Positions 1-26,135 of a stretch of DNA of 64,000 bases are shown here, piece after piece. The stretch spans positions 4,296-68,295 of the forward strand of contig CAYSPW010000001.1 in the NCBI GenBank assembly GCA_964433095.1. The letters run 5' to 3'. A program made the position numbers and the translations under genes. Position 1 is the first letter of the stretch. Every line of letters starts with the position of its first letter. Origin of the DNA: an uncultured Gammaproteobacteria bacterium. Its GTDB lineage: Bacteria > Patescibacteriota > Patescibacteriia > Magasanikbacterales > UBA922. The notes below the pieces were generated by a model. That model worked only from the letters and a program-made list of their open reading frames with translations. It made no database searches and was not told the origin of the DNA.

Positions 1-186
1 CGAACCGATCCCGGATCAGAAGGGTTTGTCCAAACTTACAGCTATTTGTTACATATTCCAAAACAAAATTACACCTATCGTTTTTACACTTCGGCCGATG
101 ATACACGAGACTTGGAAAAAATCGAGTTTAAATTTGATGAAATAATGAAAACCATTGAATTGCATTAAATTAAAAAATAAATACGA

Positions 187-215
187 TTGACTAATTTTTT
201 AAATTCTGACATAAT
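187..215 (+). promoter_or_regulatory. sigma70-like promoter (TTGACT-N17-CATAAT) upstream of the structured leader
   Basis: TTGACT at 187-192, 17-nt spacer, CATAAT at 210-215. It lies upstream of the leader RNA and the DUF4430 gene. Confidence 0.35.
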
Positions 216-234
216 GCCAATATTATTAAAAAAT

Positions 235-360
235 ATACTAATGCCTGTGGAAGTGAGGTGGGATTCCTTCACTGTGCCGCAACGGTAATGCCATAATGGC
301 TAGTCCGGTCTTCAGGTAATTTACATTTCCCGAGCAGGAAGCCGAGTTAAAAAAAGAGTC
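235..360 (+). ncRNA. structured 5' leader, candidate cobalamin (B12) riboswitch aptamer
   Basis: GGAAGUGAGGUGGGAUUCC resembles the conserved GGAAnnnGGUGnGAAUCC core. CACUGUGCC resembles the GCCACUG-type element. CCCGAGCAGGAAGCC resembles the B12 box GAGCCAGGAGACCUGCC. It is followed by an intrinsic terminator and then a DUF4430 (cobalamin-binding-domain-like) gene. Confidence 0.4.
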
Positions 361-376
361 TTATTCGGTCGCGTGT

Positions 377-402
377 ATCCTGTTTCAGGATGCTTTTTTT
401 TT
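377..402 (+). terminator. intrinsic terminator, putative riboswitch expression platform (attenuator)
   Basis: Stem ATCCTG/CAGGAT with loop TTT, then GC and a 9-T run. It sits between the leader and the ATG at 418. Confidence 0.5.
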
Positions 403-417
403 AATCTTTTGAATTTC

Positions 418-1083
418 ATGTTCAAATTTATTGAGAAAAATATCACATTAGTTCTGATATGGACTTTCTTGTTGTTAATCACCGTTTTGAGCGGATATAC
501 TACCTATGTAAAGTCTGCCGATTTTTCCAAAACCATACATAGTGACTATAAAAGTATAGACTACTCTATACAAAAATATTATTCAAACCGGATTCAAGAG
601 CCAAATATTGATTTTAGTTTAGATGAAAATGAACAATATAAAGCGCGGGGTAATCAAAAAGTATACACTAGTATAGACAAACTGCAAATTATCAATGATG
701 GCACCGCTACCGCGTCCGAGTCATTGGCACCATCTTCCGCTTCAAACTTTGCTAACGCTAACGGTGACCGAACCATAATTTCCGCGACTTTAAAAGTCGC
801 GGATAAAGAATATACGGCTGAATTGACCGATCCGGTAACTGTTTATGAAATGATGGACAAAACGCGCCGGCAGACAGATTTTACTTTTGAGAGCCGAAAT
901 CATGATTATCTGGGTCATTTCATCACCGCCATAAACGGTACTTTGAATGATAAAAAAACGGGGCGCTTTTGGATTTATTATGTTAACGGTGAAAAAGCGC
1001 GTATCGGTATTTCAAATAGAATATTAAAAAATAATGATATAATAGAATGGAAATATGAAAAAGACACAAGCGTTCATTTTTAG
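418..1083 (+). CDS. DUF4430 domain protein (transcobalamin/intrinsic-factor beta-domain-like) with N-terminal TM anchor
   Basis: The C-terminal motif RFWIYYVNGEKARIGISNRILKNNDIIEWKY matches the DUF4430 W-x-Y-x-VNG...GD-x-I-x-W-x-Y signature. The N-terminal segment is hydrophobic. The track ORF starts at 373, but that codon lies inside the terminator hairpin, so the ATG at 418 is more likely. Confidence 0.6.
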   Translation: MFKFIEKNITLVLIWTFLLLITVLSGYTTYVKSADFSKTIHSDYKSIDYSIQKYYSNRIQEPNIDFSLDENEQYKARGNQKVYTSIDKLQIINDGTATASESLAPSSASNFANANGDRTIISATLKVADKEYTAELTDPVTVYEMMDKTRRQTDFTFESRNHDYLGHFITAINGTLNDKKTGRFWIYYVNGEKARIGISNRILKNNDIIEWKYEKDTSVHF

Positions 1084-3562
1084 TTGTTCTTTGGTGCCGA
1101 TCTTATTGGCTTTTTTTTTCACTAACGTGGGTCACGTTAGTGCGGCTGTCACAAGTTCAGCCGATACCGTGGCCACGTCCAGTACAACCGCTCAACCTTT
1201 TACCATCACTTCTACCACGCCTACCGGCATCAAAACTGTTACTGCCTCCACTTCCATTGGTAATTCTTTCTCCACTACTACGTCCGGCACGCTTAATTAT
1301 ACGTTAAACACCCCCCCTTCTTCCAAAGCTACGGTTAAAGCTGAAAAAGGACCGGTGAATTTTCATTTACGCCATCAAGATCGCATCATATATCAGGCCG
1401 ATATTGAAATGAGCAATGTCACCTATTTCGACTCATGTAATAATATTGATTATCACCTAAGCGGCACAAGCACGGTTTTTTCCACTTTGGTGAAAGCAGA
1501 CCAAAAAAGCAGCGCGTTTAAAATTACAAATGCTCAATACGACGCGTTGTTAAACGCTTTTCACGTATCTTGCGTTGATGTCGCCTCTTCATCGGGGGAG
1601 GGTGGACATGAGTCGGCTTGTAATAATTGGAATTATACTGTGGACGGTGAATACCCGAGTATATCCATGGATAAATATGAACTGAGCGGCGGTGAATCGG
1701 TTTACGTTTTTTTTTCCACACCATGGAAGGTAACGGCAAACACCTCTACGGCAGCGGTCGGAGAGCCTGTGCGGTTTACTACTTGGAGATACGACTACGC
1801 AAACACGCGGGATCCTTGGGCAACTGATGGAGGAAATTCAATAGAAATTTCAGTACCAAACCCTAATCCAAGTGGCTGGTGGGATGAAATTATCGCCACC
1901 AGCACTATAATTACTGACACCAATGGACAGGTTGAGTATGCTTTTTCAACGAGCGGTACATATTATGCCAAAATTACCGCCCCTGATTGGTCGAAGTGGA
2001 GTGAAACTATTGCTATTGACATTCTTGACAGGTTCCACGAACCCGCATCTCAATCAGCTTCATCAAGCCAAGACACTATTAATTCTGCCGTATCCGAACA
2101 AAAACAGACTGATTTGGTGCCTGAGGAAACAATCCAGCAGGCGGTGGATGGTATAATTGAATTTTTACGTTCCAAACAAAGCGAGGATGGTGGTATCATT
2201 GACGGCGGTATCAGTGATTGGGCGGCCATTTCTTTTGCCGCGACCGATATCGACCCCGCTGAGGTACGAGGCGATGGCGACAGCCTGGCCGAATACATTG
2301 ACAATTATGAATTTAACCACGATACTGAATTAAATTTATGTGCTAGCTATCCCAGGCACATATTGGCGCTCAGCGCCGCGGACAGGACCATACAAGATCA
2401 AAACATCCAATCTCTTTATGGTAGTATGATTAATCAATGTGTTAAGAGCGGTAAACAATATGGAGAACCGGGCATCGGAGATGATGTTTTTGCCCTCTTA
2501 GCCTTGTCCATGTCGCCGGATGGGTACGCTGATCTTATCAATAATTTGTTGGACAATATCGTACGCGATCAAAGCACTACCGGTGCCTTTACCTGGAACG
2601 GATATCCGGATGCCGATATTACCGGAGCCGCTATAAATGCCTTCGCGCGCTCCCGACAAGCCGGATTCACTTTTGACGAACGAATAATAGATAAAGCCAA
2701 AAACTATCTAAAAAGCACTCAGCTTCCCGACGGTGGATGGGGCTTCGGCCAAAGTTCGGCACTAACCACCTCTTGGGCCGTTATGGGCATAAATTCCATT
2801 AATGAAACACAATCTGAATGGATTCACAGTGAAGGAAAAAATCCTTGGCACGTGCTGGTTGAAAACATCAATGAGGACGGATATTACGAATCAAGCCGGT
2901 CTGAATCTGAAATTGACTGGTTTTCCACAAAGCACGCTATCCCTGCCATGCTTGGTCATGGCTGGCCGATTACTATCTCCAAATCGCGTAGCCATAACAG
3001 TGATGAAAGCGGCAATGATACGAGCAACCGGGAGAACGTGGAAAATAGTTATTTGGAGTCTAAGACTGACAATGAAACCGATCAACAAAATGAAACCGAT
3101 CTAGACCAAAAAAATAGTGAAGACACCGCTGAATCGCCGACTGAAAAACAGCAAAATCCGAAAGCTGGAAAAAAAGATGACAGCAGGCAAGATGATGAAA
3201 AACAGACGACGGACAAAGAAGAGAAGAAAGATAACGAGCAGGAAAATGTATTTAATTCTCCACCGGATAATAGTACGGTGGAAAAAGAATTTACCGGTTT
3301 GGAAAAATTCGGTATCAAAGGACAGGTTTTATCCGATCCGGTTCAGACCGGCGATGACAATCCGGAAATATTAAAACAACCCGAATCGGCCACGGGCGGC
3401 ACTCGGCTACTTGCTAATCAAATGAGTGCCAAATCGTCCGAGCATGCCGGATATTTCGGGAGGATGATAGATTTTTGGCTAAAAAACAGCGAAATAATCT
3501 TTATTACTGACGGAATTTTATTAATTCTATTATCAATTTATTTCTACTATAAAAAAACATAA
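1055..3562 (+). CDS. secreted multidomain surface protein: signal peptide, Thr-rich region, DUF4430-like segment, prenyltransferase/squalene-cyclase-like alpha/alpha-toroid repeats, acidic low-complexity linker, C-terminal TM anchor
   Basis: Signal peptide MKKTQAFIFSCSLVPILLAFFFTNVGHVSAA. NWNYTVDGEYPSISMDKYELSGGESVYVFF is DUF4430-like. Repeated DGG(I/W)...W motifs (DGGIIDGGISDWAAISFAATD, LPDGGWGFGQSSALTTSWAVMG) are typical of the terpene-cyclase/prenyltransferase alpha6/alpha6 toroid. About 230 aa are D/E/K/N/Q-rich. The C-terminal hydrophobic helix is followed by KKT. Confidence 0.55.
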   Translation: MKKTQAFIFSCSLVPILLAFFFTNVGHVSAAVTSSADTVATSSTTAQPFTITSTTPTGIKTVTASTSIGNSFSTTTSGTLNYTLNTPPSSKATVKAEKGPVNFHLRHQDRIIYQADIEMSNVTYFDSCNNIDYHLSGTSTVFSTLVKADQKSSAFKITNAQYDALLNAFHVSCVDVASSSGEGGHESACNNWNYTVDGEYPSISMDKYELSGGESVYVFFSTPWKVTANTSTAAVGEPVRFTTWRYDYANTRDPWATDGGNSIEISVPNPNPSGWWDEIIATSTIITDTNGQVEYAFSTSGTYYAKITAPDWSKWSETIAIDILDRFHEPASQSASSSQDTINSAVSEQKQTDLVPEETIQQAVDGIIEFLRSKQSEDGGIIDGGISDWAAISFAATDIDPAEVRGDGDSLAEYIDNYEFNHDTELNLCASYPRHILALSAADRTIQDQNIQSLYGSMINQCVKSGKQYGEPGIGDDVFALLALSMSPDGYADLINNLLDNIVRDQSTTGAFTWNGYPDADITGAAINAFARSRQAGFTFDERIIDKAKNYLKSTQLPDGGWGFGQSSALTTSWAVMGINSINETQSEWIHSEGKNPWHVLVENINEDGYYESSRSESEIDWFSTKHAIPAMLGHGWPITISKSRSHNSDESGNDTSNRENVENSYLESKTDNETDQQNETDLDQKNSEDTAESPTEKQQNPKAGKKDDSRQDDEKQTTDKEEKKDNEQENVFNSPPDNSTVEKEFTGLEKFGIKGQVLSDPVQTGDDNPEILKQPESATGGTRLLANQMSAKSSEHAGYFGRMIDFWLKNSEIIFITDGILLILLSIYFYYKKT

Positions 3563-3575
3563 ATATATAAATGAT

Positions 3576-4142
3576 ATGAAAAAAAATGCCTTCCAATGGA
3601 CGGTTGTATGCCTGTTGATAATTCTTGGCTTGGTAGCCAGGTTATTGCCGCACGCCCCCAACTTTACCCCGATTGCCGCGATAGCCATATTTAGTGCCAT
3701 TTATTTACCCAAAAAAATCTTTCTAATTGCCCCGATGCTTGTGATGATAATTAGTGACTATCTTATCGGATTTTACAGCTTACCAATTATGGCTTCCGTT
3801 TATTTATGTTTTATTTTAAGTGCTTTTATCGGACTCTTAATTAAAAGATACAAAAATGTTCAATCAATCATCGGCGGCGCTGTCGGTTCCGCGTTTGTAT
3901 TCTATCTGATCACCAACGCGGCTGTTTGGTTTTTTTCAGGACTTTACCCCAATAATTTCTATGGATTAGTTAACAGTTATGTAATGGCTCTTCCTTTCTT
4001 CAAAAATACGCTGGCCGGGGATATATTTTACGTTGTAGTGATGGTTGGAATCATGGAATCGGCTCTGTTTTTGCAACAAAAAAAACCGCACGCGCAGCCA
4101 CGGTTGAAATTACTAACTAATCATCTTACTTCAAGGCTTTAA
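3576..4142 (+). CDS. small polytopic membrane protein (5-6 TM), possible ECF S-component/BtuM-like substrate-capture protein
   Basis: 188 aa and almost entirely hydrophobic helices. It is co-directional with and immediately downstream of the DUF4430/alpha-toroid genes. I recognised no specific family motif; the functional call rests on gene context. Confidence 0.35.
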   Translation: MKKNAFQWTVVCLLIILGLVARLLPHAPNFTPIAAIAIFSAIYLPKKIFLIAPMLVMIISDYLIGFYSLPIMASVYLCFILSAFIGLLIKRYKNVQSIIGGAVGSAFVFYLITNAAVWFFSGLYPNNFYGLVNSYVMALPFFKNTLAGDIFYVVVMVGIMESALFLQQKKPHAQPRLKLLTNHLTSRL

Positions 4143-5748
4143 AAAAAGCCTTGAATAACGGATGTGGCTGTAAGGGTTGGGATTTAAATTCAGGATGGAA
4201 TTGCACGCCGATCATAAAGGGGTGGGTTTTATCTTCCACAATCTCAACCAATTCATTGTCCGGCGAAACACCGGCCAGCAGCAGCCCTTTTTCAGTCATG
4301 ATTTGTCTGTACTCATTGTTAAATTCGTATCGGTGTCTGTGTCTCTCGGATATTTTTTCAGTTTTGTAAGCTCGGAAACTTTTGCTTTTTTTATCCAGCA
4401 GGCATGGATAAGCACCCAAGCGCATGGTTGCTCCATAATTGCCGCTTGCCATGTATTTTTTTTGTTCCTCAATGACATGAATTACCGGATGCATCGTGTC
4501 CGGATTTAATTCTTCGGAATTAGCTCCCTTTAATCCACACGCGTTGCGGGCGAATTCAATTGTTTGAATCTGCATTCCCAGGCAAAGACCTAGATAGGGA
4601 ATTTTATTCAAACGAGCGTATTGCGCCGCCAATATCATGCCTTCGGTGCCGCGCGTGCCAAAACCTCCTGGAATAACCATACCGTCAAGCTGACTCAGCT
4701 CTTTCAGCTTTGTTTTATCTTTTTCATATACTTCCGAATCCAGCCATAAAATCCTCGGCTTTACATTATTGGCCCAGGCCGCATGTTGCAGTGATTCTAT
4801 CACTGATATGTACGTATCGCGGCAAGATTTAAAATTAAAATACTTGCCCACTATCCCGATTACACTCTCTTTTTTTATTTTTTTTATTTTTCGCGATAAA
4901 TCTATCCAATCACTCATGCCGCTTTGCTTACCACGATAACCCAGCGTCTTTAATATCTCGTCGCCTATTTTTTGCCGATGAAAAATTATCGGCACATCAT
5001 AAATTGATTCTACGTTTGGACCTGAAATAATTCTTTTTGCCGGTAAACTGCATACATTGCTGATTGTATTTTTAATATCCTCGCTAACCGGATCTTTAGC
5101 ACGACAAATGATAAAATCAGGTGATATGCCGGCAGAATTTAAAGTTCTGATCGCATATTGAGTGGGCTTGGATTTCTGTTCTCCTAAAAGCGTGGGAGTG
5201 GGCAGATAACTAACCATCACAAAACTGACATCTTTGGGATTTTTCACTTTCATCATCCTGGCCGCTTCCAAAAAAAGCAACAGCTGGTATTCTCCCACCG
5301 TACCGCCATATTCCACTATTACTATTTCCGCTTGGGTTTTTTTTTGGCAAAGTTTAATCCTTCTGATTATTTCTTTGGGAACATCCGGGACCACCTCTAC
5401 ATCCTCGCCGCCGTATTCCAGGTTTCTTTCACGGCGGATCACTTCCTTATAAACTTGTCCGGTGGTGATATAGTTATCGGCCGTGCATGTTTGACCGGTA
5501 AAACGCTCGTAATTACCCAAATCCTGATCCGCCTCTATTCCGTCTTCACCTACAAAAACCTCGCCATGCTCAGCCGGACGAATGGTGCCGGCATCAATAT
5601 TGACATACATGTCACATTTGATATTAGCCACTTTGTGGCCTTTGGCCTGGATTATCTTGCCAATGGACGCTGATGCCACCCCCTTTCCCACAGAAGACAT
5701 TACTCCTCCGATTACGAATATATATTTAGCTTTTTTGCTCATAATCAC
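4126..5748 (-). CDS. pyrG: CTP synthase
   Basis: N-terminal KYIFVIGGVMSSVGKGVASASIG and a C-terminal glutamine amidotransferase domain (GLCLGMQ). Confidence 0.95.
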   Translation of the reverse strand: MIMSKKAKYIFVIGGVMSSVGKGVASASIGKIIQAKGHKVANIKCDMYVNIDAGTIRPAEHGEVFVGEDGIEADQDLGNYERFTGQTCTADNYITTGQVYKEVIRRERNLEYGGEDVEVVPDVPKEIIRRIKLCQKKTQAEIVIVEYGGTVGEYQLLLFLEAARMMKVKNPKDVSFVMVSYLPTPTLLGEQKSKPTQYAIRTLNSAGISPDFIICRAKDPVSEDIKNTISNVCSLPAKRIISGPNVESIYDVPIIFHRQKIGDEILKTLGYRGKQSGMSDWIDLSRKIKKIKKESVIGIVGKYFNFKSCRDTYISVIESLQHAAWANNVKPRILWLDSEVYEKDKTKLKELSQLDGMVIPGGFGTRGTEGMILAAQYARLNKIPYLGLCLGMQIQTIEFARNACGLKGANSEELNPDTMHPVIHVIEEQKKYMASGNYGATMRLGAYPCLLDKKSKSFRAYKTEKISERHRHRYEFNNEYRQIMTEKGLLLAGVSPDNELVEIVEDKTHPFMIGVQFHPEFKSQPLQPHPLFKAFFKALK

Positions 5749-20688: not shown

Positions 20689-21114
20689 TTATTTGGCATG
20701 AAATTTCTCGGCGACTTGTTCGACCGGTTGATCGCCCGGGTGATTTATTATGCTATGCATATTACCTCCGCCATCGCCGCGCCAGCGCGGTAGTATATGC
20801 ACATGCAGATGCTCAACCACTTGACCGCCGGCCGGTTTTTGATTCCACCCCACGTTATATCCGTCCGGACTCAACTTATCATCAATTAACTTCATGGTCT
20901 TTTTTACCGCGGCGAACAATTCGGCAAACCCTTCGTTCATCTCAAGCGGCGTTGCGGCGTGAACCTTAGGTATAACAACCGTATGGCCTTTGGCACGCGG
21001 ATTAATATCCAAAAAAGCCAAGCTATTTTCATCTTCATAAATTTTATGCGCCGGAATTTCTCCTTGAATAATTTTACAAAATATACAATCCCGCATATTA
21101 AATTTCTTTATCAC
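20689..21114 (-). CDS. HIT-family nucleotide hydrolase
   Basis: Histidine triad VVEHLHVHILPRW. It overlaps the downstream membrane-protein gene by 17 nt. Confidence 0.85.
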   Translation of the reverse strand: MIKKFNMRDCIFCKIIQGEIPAHKIYEDENSLAFLDINPRAKGHTVVIPKVHAATPLEMNEGFAELFAAVKKTMKLIDDKLSPDGYNVGWNQKPAGGQVVEHLHVHILPRWRGDGGGNMHSIINHPGDQPVEQVAEKFHAK

Positions 21115-23341
21115 TAAAGCGCAATATTACATATTCATCAGTATAAAGAGGTTCTACATCCATTATACCATCCTGATACGCACCGTTGTCAATGGCCACA
21201 AAACACTGATCCGCTCCTGTCAAATGAAATGCCCGATTCAGCCCTTGTACCAAATTTCCTTCTGCAATTTCATCATATATCCGCATCCTCTCGGGCTGGG
21301 CGAATTGATAATCCATGGGAAATCCGCCTCCCGCTATTTTTGCGTGGGATTGAGCCTCAATTAACAACAAAAGCCAAGTATCGGCAATAATACAATGATT
21401 GTTGCTGGTGGTGGATATATTTTGTAAAATAATTCGCGCGGCTTGATATTCTTTATCCGACACCACCCTCATGTCAGGCCCCGAGCCATAAGCAATCACC
21501 CCCAGCAAGCTAAAAATAACTACCAATATTATAGTATACACTTTCACTACTACCGGGTTAAGAAACCTGGTTGACAACTTATTAAACGAAGCGCCGACAA
21601 ACGAAAGAAAAAAGATTAAAATGATTAGCGCCAAAACATGATCCAATCTTCTGGTAAATAATCGATCGCCTTCCAGATAAAACCACCCGATAAGATAGGC
21701 CCCAAAACTCATAAAGGCTAAAAAGGTAACAAAAAACCAATACTTGTCGTTTTTTTTTATTACCGCGTTCATCAGCTCTAACAAAAAGCAAAGACAAATA
21801 ATTAGCATAAGCGGAATAACGATCCATCTTATGCCGGTAAAAAAATTTTCTACAAACGCGTAATTCGGAGTATGATTAAAAAAAATATTGCCCATCAATA
21901 TATCATGACTTCTGATGCCGCTGGCATAATACCAGCCGGAAAAAATAGCCAAGGCCTTTTTAGCGGATAATACTAAATCGTACTGTTCCGGCAACCGGCT
22001 AATTTTGGCGCTTAATTCAATAGCAGGAAAAAAAAGCGGCGCTCCCAGAAGCAGAATAATTTTTGCCGGAATCAACAATGCTTTTTTCTTAGCACGGGCA
22101 ATCAAACCATAAACAAACACCACCGGTACGGAAAAGAATAGTAGCAAAAAATGCAAGCTGTATCCGAATAGCATTAAAAAAGTAAATATTGCCGCCGGCA
22201 AGAGCTGGCCGGGCGCCTGATCTTGAAAATACTGAAGCCACAAACACATCACAAACAAAAAAACCACAAAACCCAAGCTTACCGGCAAACTGATCGCTCC
22301 CAAAACTTGAAACGTAAACGGCAACAGGCCGAGCCAGGCCAGCAACAATCCCATGCGCCAATTGCGAAATATCAGGTGGCCGATTCTAAATAAAAACATT
22401 GTTCCAAATACCGACCAAAGCAAAGGCACCAGCCACTTGCTCACGGTCGCTAAATCCAAATTAAAACCACCCGCCACGAGCACGTTCACGGCCCAATAGT
22501 GCGCGTAAGTAAACTTTTGCGGCACGGTAAAAACTTCCGGCAAATCTATTCCGGCCGCTTCCGTCCACCTGGCTTCATGTCCGTGTAAAACCGGCGGATA
22601 ATAATCTCCGTCAAGCAATTTTTCTTCTACAGCCACCATACGCCACACATCCCCTCCCCAAGGCATCTGATGGGATAAAGCCAAATAACTGTGGCATAAT
22701 ATTGACAGCAGTACCAAAAAAAACAAGACAATCTTTATTCGGCTCCTTGAAAAAATCAATATACCGAGTAGAAAAACGAGTATAAAAAAGAATGGCAGAT
22801 AAAACGGAGAAATAACTTGCCAAGGCGACCACAAAACCTGAATGCTACCTGCGGATCCGACAAGTAAGACAAAGGCGATAAACAATAAAATGACAAATAG
22901 CAAACTCACATACCATGATTGATCAAAAATAACCAAACTGCTCGTTAATTGACGAACGGGCTTTTTTTTAAGTCCGACTTTTTTTAAATCGCGGGCATAA
23001 TTAAAAATCAAATAGTTAATTAAAAATGAAAAGCTGTAAGCGGCCACTTGCGTATCGGGGCTGATGCGTGAAAAAGTGATAAATATCGCCGCTGTCAAAG
23101 TCAGGCTTAAAAAAGCGGCAAAAAAAGCAAGCAGCGATCTTTCCCAATATCTTGACCTTACCGCAAACACTAGCAATAAAATACGGTCAAAAAAATATGT
23201 TTGCACCAATAAAAACAGTACCATTATCGCGCCGTTCACAAATATCCGCTCCCAATAATGTAAATTGGAGTATAAAAAAAATATGCTGAGCACAGATAAC
23301 AGCAGAGCCAAGTACTGCTTTTTAAATAATTTATGTTTCAT
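21098..23341 (-). CDS. large polytopic membrane protein (about 14 TM plus C-terminal soluble domain), putative lipid-linked glycosyl/polymer transferase; paralog of 24027..26135
   Basis: 747 aa and mostly TM helices. It shares the loop motif W-G-x-D-x-[WF]-x3-A-x-E (WGGDVWRMVAVEE) with the other large membrane protein (WGYDPFLHRATEI). Confidence 0.45.
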   Translation of the reverse strand: MKHKLFKKQYLALLLSVLSIFFLYSNLHYWERIFVNGAIMVLFLLVQTYFFDRILLLVFAVRSRYWERSLLAFFAAFLSLTLTAAIFITFSRISPDTQVAAYSFSFLINYLIFNYARDLKKVGLKKKPVRQLTSSLVIFDQSWYVSLLFVILLFIAFVLLVGSAGSIQVLWSPWQVISPFYLPFFFILVFLLGILIFSRSRIKIVLFFLVLLSILCHSYLALSHQMPWGGDVWRMVAVEEKLLDGDYYPPVLHGHEARWTEAAGIDLPEVFTVPQKFTYAHYWAVNVLVAGGFNLDLATVSKWLVPLLWSVFGTMFLFRIGHLIFRNWRMGLLLAWLGLLPFTFQVLGAISLPVSLGFVVFLFVMCLWLQYFQDQAPGQLLPAAIFTFLMLFGYSLHFLLLFFSVPVVFVYGLIARAKKKALLIPAKIILLLGAPLFFPAIELSAKISRLPEQYDLVLSAKKALAIFSGWYYASGIRSHDILMGNIFFNHTPNYAFVENFFTGIRWIVIPLMLIICLCFLLELMNAVIKKNDKYWFFVTFLAFMSFGAYLIGWFYLEGDRLFTRRLDHVLALIILIFFLSFVGASFNKLSTRFLNPVVVKVYTIILVVIFSLLGVIAYGSGPDMRVVSDKEYQAARIILQNISTTSNNHCIIADTWLLLLIEAQSHAKIAGGGFPMDYQFAQPERMRIYDEIAEGNLVQGLNRAFHLTGADQCFVAIDNGAYQDGIMDVEPLYTDEYVILRFSDKEI

Positions 23342-24026: not shown

Positions 24027-26135
24027 ATGTCAATCCGGTTGAAATATACCATAATATACCTGTTTTGCCTAGCGGCTTTAATACTGGGTTTATTTTTTTC
24101 TCTACCGCTGTTGCCGCTGATAGCGCTAATTGCTTTATTGTTGTTAGCGGCCTTCACACTCAACCAAATTGAACTTTTAGCCTTACCGGGTTGGAATATT
24201 CTTTGGAGCTTTGTTATTTTATCCGGCATTATATTTTTGACGCACTCAATTATTTATTTTTTTTACAAAAGCACTCAAATCACAATATTATTATCTGTAT
24301 TGCCGCCCACCGCGCTTGCGTTGTATGTGTTGAAAGACAAAAAAATAAACTTGGTAAAACTACATCAGCTTAAAGCAAAGATAAAAAAAATCTTTTGTCA
24401 GAATATAACTCAAATTTCTAAAACAGACTGGCTTTTTTTGGCTATTTTAGTATTACAGTTGATTCTTTACCTGAAAACAAGGCAAAAAGCCACCTTTGAC
24501 GCTCTCGGATCTCCCTGGCCGCTCTTTGGCCCTCGTTTTTTTGTTTTGTACGCAATCAATACCACCGCCATTGTTTGGTACGCTTTTAAAAGTAAATCCG
24601 AACTGTTATGGCTGATCGCGGCCGTTTTTCAATTTTTACTCTCTTTCAATATTATCACCGCCGTATATCCGCTCGGTTGGGGTTATGATCCTTTTTTGCA
24701 CAGAGCGACCGAAATATATATTCATCAGTTTGGCGCCGCTTTGCCTAAAACCCCTTTCTATATTGGTCAATTCGCCATTGTAAACACTATCGCCCACCTG
24801 ACAGGCTGGGCAATAAAAACAATAGATATTTATCTGGTTCCGATTCTGGCCGGCATTTTACTGCCGCTGAGCGCGTACTTTGGACTACGACACGGCTTGC
24901 GTTTGAAAAAAAACGCGCTCAGGCTGGCCACGCTGGCCATCCTGCTCTATCCGCTCAGTTCTTTTGTGGCTACAACACCGCATAATCTGGCCAATCTTTT
25001 TACTTTGGTAAGCATATTTTTGTCGCTATTGTTGCTTCAAGGCAATAAATACTGGCCATTACCCTCTATTTTTTCCGCCCTGGCAATGGCCACCCACCCA
25101 TTAACCGGAATTTTCTCCGTGGTCATGTTACTGGCTCTCATGGCGCATAATCACGCGAATAAAATCTCCGGAAAAATTTTCATTATATTTCTTTTTACAG
25201 CCTCAAGTGTTATGGTGCCATTTTTTTTCTGGATATATTCACTCGTTGGCGGAATGGAAATTCAATTTTCCTTAAACTCGCAAGCTTTTTTCAATTTGTT
25301 TTCTGAGCCATATTATTTTATCAACCGGCCAGCACATTTTATCTACGATCTGGTTTACGCCTATAGATTCTTTCTGCCAGGCATTTTAATTTCACTGGCT
25401 TTGCTGGTCTTTTTAAAAAAACAATATCGCCATGCAAAAATCATGTACTTTCCCTTGGTTTCGCTTTCTATTATGATCAATATATTAATCATCAACTCAA
25501 TGATTAAATTTGTCAACCTGAACGCTTTTGAGCAGTCACACTATGCCGAACGTCTATTGCATTCCACTCTGTTTTTCATTCTCCCGCTCTCGTCATTGGG
25601 ATTGGTAAGATTAGTAGAGTATACAAAAAAAATAAGTAATTCGCTGTTACTTTTAATTTTGAGCGTCTTGATATTAGCTCTTACCGCCTCTTTTTACTTG
25701 ACTTATCCGCAAAAAAATCCTATCGCCCATTTTCCAGGCTACAACATAACCAAAGCGGATTATTCAGCCGCAAAACTAATAAAAAACCTCAATCGGGAAC
25801 AAAACTATGTGGTGCTATCCAACATCATGACCGCGGCCGCGGCAATAGAAACGTACGGCTTTGAAACATATTTTAACAGCACCCAAGGACCTCTGTTTTA
25901 CTATGCCATTCCCTCGGGCGGACCTTTGGCCGAGCTTTATTCGAATATGCTCTATCACGAACAAAAAAGACAATACATGTACCAGGCGATGGACTTGACA
26001 CAAGCTAAAAAAGCTTACTTTGTGGTAAATTCTTACTGGCATAAAAGTATGGAAATAATTCAAGGCGCCAAACAGACCGCGGATAAATATTGGTCAATTG
26101 ACGATAAAATTTGGATTTTTGAATATAAAAGGTAA
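24027..26135 (+). CDS. large polytopic membrane protein, paralog of 21098..23341
   Basis: 702 aa with many TM helices and a C-terminal soluble domain. It shares the WG-x-D...A-x-E loop motif. Confidence 0.45.
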   Translation: MSIRLKYTIIYLFCLAALILGLFFSLPLLPLIALIALLLLAAFTLNQIELLALPGWNILWSFVILSGIIFLTHSIIYFFYKSTQITILLSVLPPTALALYVLKDKKINLVKLHQLKAKIKKIFCQNITQISKTDWLFLAILVLQLILYLKTRQKATFDALGSPWPLFGPRFFVLYAINTTAIVWYAFKSKSELLWLIAAVFQFLLSFNIITAVYPLGWGYDPFLHRATEIYIHQFGAALPKTPFYIGQFAIVNTIAHLTGWAIKTIDIYLVPILAGILLPLSAYFGLRHGLRLKKNALRLATLAILLYPLSSFVATTPHNLANLFTLVSIFLSLLLLQGNKYWPLPSIFSALAMATHPLTGIFSVVMLLALMAHNHANKISGKIFIIFLFTASSVMVPFFFWIYSLVGGMEIQFSLNSQAFFNLFSEPYYFINRPAHFIYDLVYAYRFFLPGILISLALLVFLKKQYRHAKIMYFPLVSLSIMINILIINSMIKFVNLNAFEQSHYAERLLHSTLFFILPLSSLGLVRLVEYTKKISNSLLLLILSVLILALTASFYLTYPQKNPIAHFPGYNITKADYSAAKLIKNLNREQNYVVLSNIMTAAAAIETYGFETYFNSTQGPLFYYAIPSGGPLAELYSNMLYHEQKRQYMYQAMDLTQAKKAYFVVNSYWHKSMEIIQGAKQTADKYWSIDDKIWIFEYKR

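Follow-up and report, generated by a model that had tools for sequence, protein, structure and literature searches.

Identification of the cytoplasmic-membrane carriers of vitamin B12 (cobalamin) is an open problem for many B12-dependent bacteria (Rodionov et al. 2019, PMC6593275), and BtuCDF is present in only about half of the B12 auxotrophs (Rempel et al. 2018, PMC6072759). Among the described carriers, the energy-coupling factor (ECF) transporter ECF-CbrT of Lactobacillus delbrueckii imports cobalamin and cobinamide and is encoded in the cluster nrdJ-cbrS-cbrT-pduO (Santos et al. 2018, PMC5997447; PDB 6FNP). BtuM of Thiobacillus denitrificans, an S-component-like protein whose essential Cys80 in loop 3 ligates cobalt, imports B12 without an ECF module and also handles cobinamide (Rempel et al. 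2018, PMC6072759). On the extracellular side, a bacterial transcobalamin-like clade of SLBB domains carries toroid fusions at the N- or C-terminal side; operons with a second paralogous SLBB protein and an occurrence in B12 non-producers were described, a B12-scavenging role was proposed, and linkage to CbiO/CbiQ-type (ECF module) genes was noted in Gram-positive bacteria (Burroughs, Balaji, Iyer and Aravind 2007, PMC1796856). The L. sakei genes Lsa1836-1840, which encode transcobalamin beta-like and alpha-like proteins, an S-component and an ECF module, have been linked experimentally to haem uptake (bioRxiv 10.1101/864751). BtuG and BtuH are surface B12-binding lipoproteins of Bacteroides (PMC8941943, PMC10404256). 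Here we describe a three-gene operon at positions 187-4142, plus strand, of a 64,000-nt stretch (the window) of contig CAYSPW010000001.1 (GCA_964433095.1) which, judging from its relatives, is most likely a B12-repressed cobalamin (corrinoid) capture-and-import system.

The operon is a single unit made of a promoter-like site, a cobalamin riboswitch, an intrinsic terminator and three genes, and an earlier note, drawn from the letters of the sequence, had placed these elements at or near the same positions. The leader is about 190 nt long and the genes are tightly packed, with an overlap of 29 nt between genes 1 and 2 and a gap of 13 nt between genes 2 and 3. The features, in window coordinates, are:

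187..215, plus strand: sigma-70-type promoter-like site, TTGACT, a 17-nt spacer with TG, and CATAAT (10 of 12 consensus positions)
225..344, plus strand: cobalamin riboswitch aptamer of the adenosylcobalamin (AdoCbl) class, RF01482-like (RF01482 covariance model)
327..340, plus strand: P13-like hairpin UUCC-CGAGCA-GGAA (fold; conservation in relatives)
332..385, plus strand: predicted antiterminator (minimum-energy fold of 322-385, -13.9 kcal/mol)
375..402, plus strand: intrinsic terminator, GUAUCCUG-UUU-CAGGAUGC followed by U9 (hairpin with U-tract)
418..1083, plus strand: gene 1, 221 aa, DUF4430 protein (Pfam PF14478)
1055..3562, plus strand: gene 2, 835 aa, DUF4430-like domain, beta-sandwich and toroid (Pfam, profile, AlphaFold model)
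3576..4142, plus strand: gene 3, 188 aa, DUF6580 membrane protein with six transmembrane helices (Pfam PF20221, structure model)

The closest likeness is with the CbrT cluster. Both have a gene for a small membrane-anchored DUF4430 protein immediately upstream of that for a six-helix S-component-type protein of about 180 aa, and class II ribonucleotide reductase and adenosyltransferase genes are neighbours of cbrT as they are at many DUF6580 loci. The window has genes 1 and 2 ahead of gene 3 and co-directional with it. The gene located between nrdJ (or an adenosyltransferase gene) and cbrT in L. intestinalis and L. plantarum encodes a DUF4430 protein (Pfam E 1e-18 to 3e-19), and from these orthologous clusters we infer that cbrS is a DUF4430 gene; CbrT orthologues (60% identity) are located on Lactobacillales plasmids. 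The gene 1 product matches the Lactobacillales protein at the cbrS position (BLASTP E 5e-7) and by this similarity would be the counterpart of Lactobacillus CbrS. To our knowledge, CbrS itself has never been characterised. Genes 1 and 3 together would then be the analogue of cbrS-cbrT, built with a different and distantly related S-component family: CbrT sits in PF12822 (ECF_trnsprt) whereas gene 3 belongs to PF20221, and the similarity between them is marginal (E 5e-4 to 8e-5). Further, CbrT uses a shared ECF module, whereas none is seen near DUF6580 genes; in the window operon a large toroid protein and a riboswitch are extra, and nrdJ and pduO are missing.

The strongest support for a function in B12 is the conserved linkage of DUF6580 and DUF4430 genes with three Rfam families of cobalamin riboswitches, NrdJ, adenosyltransferases and BtuB-like receptors, as judged from sequence neighbourhoods; the earlier note had not anticipated it. 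The sample comprises 80 DUF6580 loci, one genome per species, whose neighbours were assigned by clustering and Pfam. A co-directional DUF4430 gene lies directly upstream of DUF6580 in 51 of the 80 loci, and all but two of the 48 small DUF4430 partners (46) carry a hydrophobic segment at the N-terminus. Class II ribonucleotide reductase, the adenosylcobalamin-dependent type with a TSCPD domain, is encoded at 22 loci and NrdR at 11. Corrinoid adenosyltransferase genes of either type are found at 18 loci (BtuR/CobO at 12, PduO-type at 6), a TonB-dependent receptor at 17 and a toroid protein at 15. About 39 of the 80 loci have a cobalamin riboswitch. A custom covariance model, built from seven aptamer cores (those of the window leader and of six orthologous leaders), finds the aptamer at E < 0.01 in 27 loci and gives weaker matches at the expected place in seven others. 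When 14 loci of diderm phyla lacking a confident match to this model, 11 of them with a TonB-dependent receptor, were scanned with Rfam, classical RF00174 riboswitches appeared in 12 (Bacteroidota, Ignavibacteria and others; 44-113 bits), and in two loci (L031 and L040) an RF00174 riboswitch stands directly in front of DUF6580. The genes follow recurrent layouts: (i) riboswitch, DUF4430, DUF4430-toroid and DUF6580, as in the window (about 15 loci, Patescibacteria); (ii) NrdR, NrdJ, (BtuR), riboswitch, DUF4430, DUF6580, (PduO); and (iii) riboswitch, TonB-dependent receptor and DUF6580 (Bacteroidota, Ignavibacteria, Omnitrophota, Proteobacteria). Where present, the toroid gene is always between the riboswitch and DUF6580. 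As to ABC ATPases, the 80 loci contain just two ABC-like open reading frames (ORFs), neither of them EcfA-like. The corrinoid-scavenging function advanced in the earlier note is supported by this comparison, and not by experiment.

Some loci of the sample have arrangements of their own. Two cobalamin riboswitches are present at L038 (5434-5531 and 7128-7214), L040 (5713-5865 and 6517-6668) and L031 (5727-5865 and 6486-6625), and L017 (7139-7232) is listed among such loci; one riboswitch precedes the DUF4430/DUF6580 genes and the second lies just after DUF6580 or PduO, so that the B12 genes fall into units with separate control. L041 (2137-6498), in a record labelled Candidatus Nanoarchaeia, has the same cluster, NrdR-NrdJ-DUF4430-DUF6580, that is seen in Patescibacteria; its presence in a contig binned as archaeal points to mis-binning or gene transfer. 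At L076 (4774-5862) a DUF5074 protein, found at 5 Bacteroidota loci in the clustering, is encoded between the TonB-dependent receptor and DUF6580 and may be another surface protein that handles B12.

DUF6580 (PF20221) is the sole Pfam family matched by gene 3 (E 3.4e-46), which places the protein outside the recognised S-component sequence families such as PF12822 and PF07155; one DUF6580 relative (P0262) has a sub-threshold PF07155 match. The structure model shows the six-helix fold of an ECF S-component with BtuM (PDB 6FFV, 8OVV) as the nearest structure, and the only PDB sequence match is CbrT (E 0.014 with the single sequence, 4.8e-4 with the family profile). In hhalign, DUF6580 aligns with a CbrT orthologue at E 7.6e-5 and the two have a common P-x-P-N-x-x-P motif. 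The 188-aa protein does not, then, come from a family unrelated to B12 transporters, a finding that would have spoken against the earlier note. On sequence and model, gene 3 is a candidate corrinoid transporter, and we hold import by DUF6580 to be probable. Solitary action, rather than action with an ECF module, is favoured because there are no adjacent ATPase genes, the phyla that have DUF6580 mostly lack ECF modules, and the fold is BtuM-like. The possibility that DUF6580 is BtuM under another name was rejected: BtuM chains are unmatched by DUF6580 in HMMER at E <= 10, even a proteobacterial member gives no sequence match, and there is no conserved cysteine. The BtuM side also differs in having no DUF4430 partner. 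His26, in the PHAPNF motif, was considered as a cobalt ligand and dropped, since a natural fusion protein (P0286) has Tyr at that place; R22, H26, N29, N114 and Y124 are candidate ligand-binding residues of DUF6580. This fusion, of 337 aa, is composed of DUF6580, a seventh transmembrane helix and DUF4430, and its topology is consistent with an outward-facing DUF4430 domain. A second composite protein (P0302, 372 aa), in which an apparent C-terminal end of a toroid protein is joined to DUF6580, is probably the result of a frameshift or a gene-calling merge. The family counts about 6,700 representatives (clusters at 50% identity) and ranges from Patescibacteria to Bacteroidota and Proteobacteria. 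In the literature searched, DUF6580 is mentioned nowhere, nor are Patescibacteria, cobalamin and riboswitch combined; the assignment of DUF6580 as a candidate B12 transporter seems to be new.

Gene 1 begins with an N-terminal hydrophobic anchor (residues 4-27, approximately; hydropathy), which some 110 aa of linker separate from the DUF4430 domain at the C-terminus. The family match claimed in the earlier note is clear: PF14478 covers residues 141-215 with E 5.7e-16 and 59.2 bits, where the cut-off is 23.8. In transcobalamins, DUF4430 forms the C-terminal domain (PMC4350170); it has the beta-grasp (SLBB) fold (PMC1796856), so that by family membership the domain at 141-215 would be transcobalamin-beta-like. 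With the single sequence of gene 1, the PDB search gave a chance match only, and NCBIfam offers no useful family for any of the three proteins. The listed ORF, used in the earlier note, begins at GTG 373, which falls inside the terminator; ATG 418 is most likely the start codon, and the 221-aa form is the one on the public protein record.

Gene 2 is more complex. It starts with a signal peptide (residues 1-31) and a Thr/Ser-rich linker (35-100), both deduced from composition and hydropathy, followed by a divergent DUF4430-like domain at about residues 101-220 (nt 1355-1714), a beta-sandwich at about 224-324 (nt 1724-2026) and a single (alpha/alpha)6 toroid of about 280 residues at about 357-634 (nt 2123-2956). 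An acidic linker at about 640-810, with 38 D/E and 22 K/R, leads to a transmembrane anchor at residues 811-829 (nt 3485-3541). The earlier note was right about the acidic linker and the C-terminal anchor, the linker being of about 170 aa and not 230. Signal peptide and anchor would place the product outside the cell. The AlphaFold model of residues 95-655 has a pLDDT of 90.4, and in it the DUF4430-like segment is beta-rich with one helix. This segment, also noticed earlier, finds weaker backing than its counterpart in gene 1: aligned by hhalign to a profile built from 16 small DUF4430 proteins, it reaches E 2.9e-4 with a probability of 40% over 73 columns, which span the whole domain, the Pfam match is at E 0.0021, and precomputed PF14478 matches exist on several gene 2 homologues.

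The toroid had been identified with the alpha domain of transcobalamins. That identification holds for the fold, since the (alpha/alpha)6 toroid can be superposed on the alpha domain of the transcobalamin family, but it is unspecific: on the model and the profiles the toroid is closest to class II terpene cyclases. It is homologous to squalene-hopene cyclases (profile search of the PDB, E 3.8e-17) and matches SQHop_cyclase_C at E 1.6e-4, below the Pfam cut-off, whereas PF01122 (Cobalamin_bind) is unmatched at E <= 0.1 and the chains of transcobalamin, intrinsic factor and haptocorrin are absent from the PDB profile search at E <= 10. From these animal proteins gene 2 differs further in its reversed domain order (DUF4430, beta-sandwich, toroid), in the second, separately encoded DUF4430 protein of the window and in the membrane tethering of both. 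Genes 1 and 2 fit the description of the secreted or surface SLBB-toroid proteins delineated in 2007; the differences lie in the DUF6580 partner, the missing adjacent ATPase, the Patescibacteria-type host and the riboswitch identified here.

Such relationships raise the alternative that genes 1 and 3 alone serve B12 and that gene 2, instead of binding corrinoids, is a surface enzyme or adhesin, terpene-cyclase-like or alpha-2-macroglobulin-like. Squalene-hopene and other class II terpene cyclases are the closest relatives of the toroid in sequence and structure, NCBI names one homologue 'terpene cyclase/mutase family protein', the best whole-chain Foldseek matches are alpha-2-macroglobulin, complement and TEP proteins, which combine a beta-sandwich with a toroid, and the 65 of 80 DUF6580 loci without a toroid gene show that it is dispensable for the core function. 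However, a secreted and membrane-tethered protein is ill-suited to be an isoprenoid diphosphate enzyme, and neither the intact DxDD, nor the two-domain architecture, nor the cytoplasmic or membrane-face location of class II terpene cyclases is found in gene 2. Its motif GIGDDVF (family consensus INDDVF) retains (N/G)DD without the first Asp of DxDD, if, as we assume, it aligns with the DxDD position of the cyclases. A thioester protein was rejected in spite of the Foldseek ranking, there being no CGEQ motif in the sequence; the resemblance to alpha-2-macroglobulin and complement is that of the shared beta-sandwich and toroid combination. Gene 2 has, besides, a DUF4430-like domain, and the toroid gene keeps a constant place between riboswitch and DUF6580. 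Independent toroid-DUF4430 fusions are likewise under riboswitch control: two distant proteins in which the toroid precedes DUF4430 (P0223 and P0226) sit behind RF01689-like and RF00174 riboswitches (RF00174 37.8 bits; RF01689 36.3 bits against a threshold of 36.5), and P0223 also adjoins BtuR and NrdJ. We therefore regard the enzyme or adhesin alternative as unlikely. The genes downstream of these distant proteins encode anchored proteins with immunoglobulin (Ig)-like domains, not transporters; these partners (L081 7770-8342, L083 3862-4335) are small, recurrent and uncharacterised, and have a signal peptide as well as a C-terminal anchor. Another relative, P0217 (468 aa), joins an N-terminal B12-binding_2 domain (PF02607) to a C-terminal toroid half, linker and anchor. 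If genuine, it would connect strikingly with B12; it comes from one contig of only 2.7 kb, is probably a chimera of assembly or gene calling, and was set aside as a Rosetta-stone fusion.

Granted that gene 2 belongs to the uptake system, the ligand could still be a different tetrapyrrole (haem, for example), or uptake could be confined to incomplete corrinoids like cobinamide, with transcobalamin-like proteins acting as general tetrapyrrole catchers. The L. sakei system resembles the window operon in encoding separate extracellular transcobalamin beta-like and alpha-like (prenyltransferase-fold) proteins together with an S-component, and its split alpha/beta, S-component and ECF operon is tied by experiment to haem (bioRxiv 10.1101/864751). 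ECF-CbrT and BtuM both handle cobinamide too (PMC5997447, PMC6072759). The L. sakei operon differs, though, in its own ECF module and its haem assignment, whereas the window operon is under a riboswitch of the cobalamin class, and three Rfam cobalamin families precede the relatives in many phyla. The recurrent neighbours are specific to B12 (class II ribonucleotide reductase, corrinoid adenosyltransferases, BtuB-like receptors), and haem-related families are not found among those whose representatives were Pfam-scanned. We regard a ligand other than cobalamin as unlikely.

The leader matches the full length of the RF01482 model (clan CL00101) at 225-344 with 49.2 bits and E 3.5e-8 in a search of 421 nt with all Rfam, a score just under the gathering score; the earlier note had asked for such a search with cobalamin covariance models. 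Six leaders of the same three-gene operon (L002, L003, L004, L009, L036 and L056) pass that score with 51.4-56.4 bits, and the conserved core of the window aptamer, 238-321, is nearly identical to theirs. Among the seven sequences, compensatory substitutions occur in helices P2, P3 and P6, with double changes at 12 of 22 pairs. The custom model scores the window aptamer at 81.6 bits, a match by construction, and finds no other in the 64 kb; in all it gives 36 matches in 81 sources (the window and 35 in the 80 related loci), almost all just 5' of a DUF4430-DUF6580 pair on the same strand. In the 36-sequence alignment, which had been fitted to the model and has to be read with that caveat, 88.2% of the cells are paired and the covariation score reaches 0.505; the slid controls give 34-48% and <=0.12, respectively. 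The likeness to RF01482 AdoCbl riboswitches comprises the full-model match, the conserved core and a peripheral hairpin tied to the expression platform; the window differs in a score 0.8 bit under the curated threshold and in an outer helix shortened by mismatches. Aptamer, terminator and operon follow one another in cis, as they do in the relatives. Comparison supports the membership of the leader in the AdoCbl class of cobalamin riboswitches, from which the ligand and its selectivity would follow.

Of the strings singled out in the earlier note, GGUGGGAUUCC is at 257-267, CACUG at 270-274 and CCCGAGCAGGAAGCC at 329-343. The last had been called B12-box-like and is instead part of the expression-platform hairpin with the CGAGCA loop; the equivalent of the J6/3 'B12 box' is AGUCCGGUCUUC at 302-313, aligned with the Rfam core element AAGUCAGGUCUUU. 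The conserved hairpin of the expression platform, CCCGAGCAGG, has its stem at 327-330/337-340 and its loop, CGAGCA, at 331-336. The loop is nearly invariant in related leaders and the stem covaries (UCC/GGA, UCU/AGA, CUUC/GAAG); the element YCC-CGAGCA-GGR is present in L001, L002, L004, L008, L019, L020, L033, L036, L055 and L066. A kissing-loop partner is expected for riboswitches of the AdoCbl type, and a partner of the CGAGCA loop was sought within the aptamer and none was identified.

The terminator has an 8-bp stem (375-393) and nine T (394-402) that end 15 nt before ATG 418. The earlier note had recognised the hairpin with its U-tract; its limits are 375-402 rather than 377-402, and the distance to the ATG is 15 and not 16 nt. 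Terminator-like sites are not enriched in this region (4 found, 4.6 expected from shuffles), and the one at 375-402 is meaningful because of its position and its conservation in related loci rather than because of the pattern itself: among the 12 closest orthologous leaders that were inspected, 11 have a hairpin with a U-tract between aptamer and start codon. Pairing is possible between UCCUGUUU (378-385), which makes up the terminator's 5' arm and loop, and GAGCAGGA (332-339), with a small hairpin enclosed at 341-369. This antiterminator is the minimum-energy fold of 322-385, that is, before the 3' arm of the terminator is made; over 322-402 the terminator fold is favoured over it by 2.7 kcal/mol. 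The CGAGCAG element of relatives also finds its complement in the 5' arm or loop of their terminators (CUGCUCG in L008, L002 and L033), and an antiterminator mechanism at 332-385 is the likely consequence of these pairings. In many related leaders (L020, L038, L046, L036, L004, L033, L001) the U-tract of the terminator stops 2-8 nt before the start codon. GGAG or GAGG occurs in the 3' hairpin arm of L020, L038 and L046, so that a single hairpin could stop transcription and also keep ribosomes from binding; that of the window lies too far from the ATG (about 28 nt) to block the ribosome.

That the leader is a decayed or non-functional look-alike and the operon constitutive or otherwise regulated is very improbable: the score just under the gathering threshold, a fold of 216-420 no more stable than shuffles (z -1.13) and the chance frequency of terminator-like patterns would agree with it, but not the full-length match, the core near-identical to those of six threshold-passing orthologues, the compensatory changes in the helices, and the conserved order of aptamer, CGAGCA hairpin and terminator before the same genes.

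Upstream of the aptamer, the promoter-like site ranks best of 19 such sites in 1-4400, where shuffles predict 10.8. With a frequency of sites about twice the shuffle expectation, the call at 187-215 is suggestive and not significant alone; the site ends about 10 nt 5' of the aptamer start, a fitting position.

We propose the following model for the operon. Transcription would start near 215-225, and the leader would fold as an AdoCbl-class riboswitch. In the absence of ligand, GAGCAGGA would pair with 378-385 to form the antiterminator and RNA polymerase would read through. With ligand bound, the aptamer would keep the GAGCAGGA element in the P13 hairpin, allowing the terminator to form and transcription to stop before gene 1; the device would be an OFF switch in which the docked CGAGCA hairpin prevents the antiterminator. 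The three products would work at the envelope of a bacterium without outer membrane. Gene 1 would display its DUF4430 domain on the N-terminal membrane anchor, and gene 2 would hold a DUF4430-like domain and a toroid between flexible Thr/Ser-rich and acidic linkers, anchored at the C-terminus. Both would bind the corrinoid extracellularly, which for the DUF4430 domains we consider rather likely. The corrin might be sandwiched between the beta-grasp domain and the toroid in a transcobalamin-like geometry, a tentative element of the model that we rate a little below even. The corrinoid would then be handed over to gene 3 and carried across the membrane by the toppling mechanism of S-components, gene 3 acting either by itself, in the way suggested for BtuM, or together with an ECF module whose genes lie elsewhere. 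Within this scheme, binding by the DUF4430 and toroid domains, the hand-over, and both the direction and the energising of transport are inferred. BtuG and BtuH would be a functional parallel, being surface-tethered high-affinity binders from riboswitch-controlled uptake loci that feed a membrane transporter; they differ in their unrelated folds (beta-propeller, DUF4465), their outer-membrane setting and their BtuB partner.

The model rests on comparison, none of its steps has experimental support, and several observations weigh against it. The aptamer misses the RF01482 gathering score (50) by 0.8 bit, because of which a gathering-threshold scan of the whole window came back empty. In gene 2, the DUF4430 match is below the Pfam threshold (18.9 bits against 23.8). 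The DUF6580 alignment has no conserved counterpart of the cobalt-ligating Cys80 of BtuM, and His26, invariant in an alignment of 37 sequences, is yet not family-wide. An ECF ATPase, EcfT, NrdJ or another B12-dependent enzyme was not found in the 64 kb by motif search and by Pfam on the large ORFs. The host's need for B12, like the energy source of the transport, is therefore presumed. Finally, the similar operon of L. sakei is linked to haem, as discussed above.

If the model holds, it has consequences beyond this operon. We see about an even chance that DUF6580 is a third, unrecognised and widespread family of S-component-type cobalamin transporters, served in monoderm-type cells by membrane-tethered transcobalamin-like binders; the sets of binders there would be DUF4430 alone or DUF4430 with a toroid. 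ECF-type systems are usually said not to need extracytoplasmic binding proteins, and DUF6580 would be an S-component fed by such proteins. The family thus offers a concrete and testable candidate for the missing B12 importers, and a role is suggested for CbrS/DUF4430, which accompanies the known transporter CbrT and is uncharacterised. The two-gene set of DUF4430 and toroid would correspond to the animal B12 carriers in a split, bacterial form and would offer a bacterial model for how these are built. Patescibacteria rely on other cells for most cofactors; few of their uptake routes can be named, and this would be among them. The binding proteins were predicted by sequence analysis in 2007, so that the present analysis extends and sharpens what was known and adds no system of a new kind. 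Precedents exist for these proteins and for the cbrS-cbrT logic; the novelty lies in DUF6580 as a candidate B12 transporter that is widespread and linked to riboswitches, in CbrS as a DUF4430 protein and in the full module in Patescibacteria.

The nearest homologues of the three proteins are from Patescibacteria, mostly Candidatus Magasanikbacteria, which makes the premise of a reduced-genome auxotroph plausible. The remainder of the window is of housekeeping character, with genes for ribosomal protein L9, an Era-like GTPase, an S41 protease, UvrA, UvrB, DnaK, LepA, RecJ, MurJ, DnaB and a ClpB-like ATPase. Amid these, two ORFs, 21098-23341 (minus strand, 747 aa) and 24027-26135 (plus strand, 702 aa), match no Pfam family at E <= 1e-5. 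At gathering score Rfam finds zero families across the 64 kb, hence no tRNA or other known RNA gene. On the 3' side of the operon, a CTP synthase gene (4126-5748, minus strand) is convergent with gene 3, with 17 nt shared by the two ORFs. At 4130-4155 (no strand assigned; -18.2 kcal/mol, z-score -7.7) the operon ends in a hairpin with a perfect stem of 11 bp, which spans the stop codons of gene 3 and of the CTP synthase gene; it has no U-tract on the plus strand and is possibly a bidirectional terminator.

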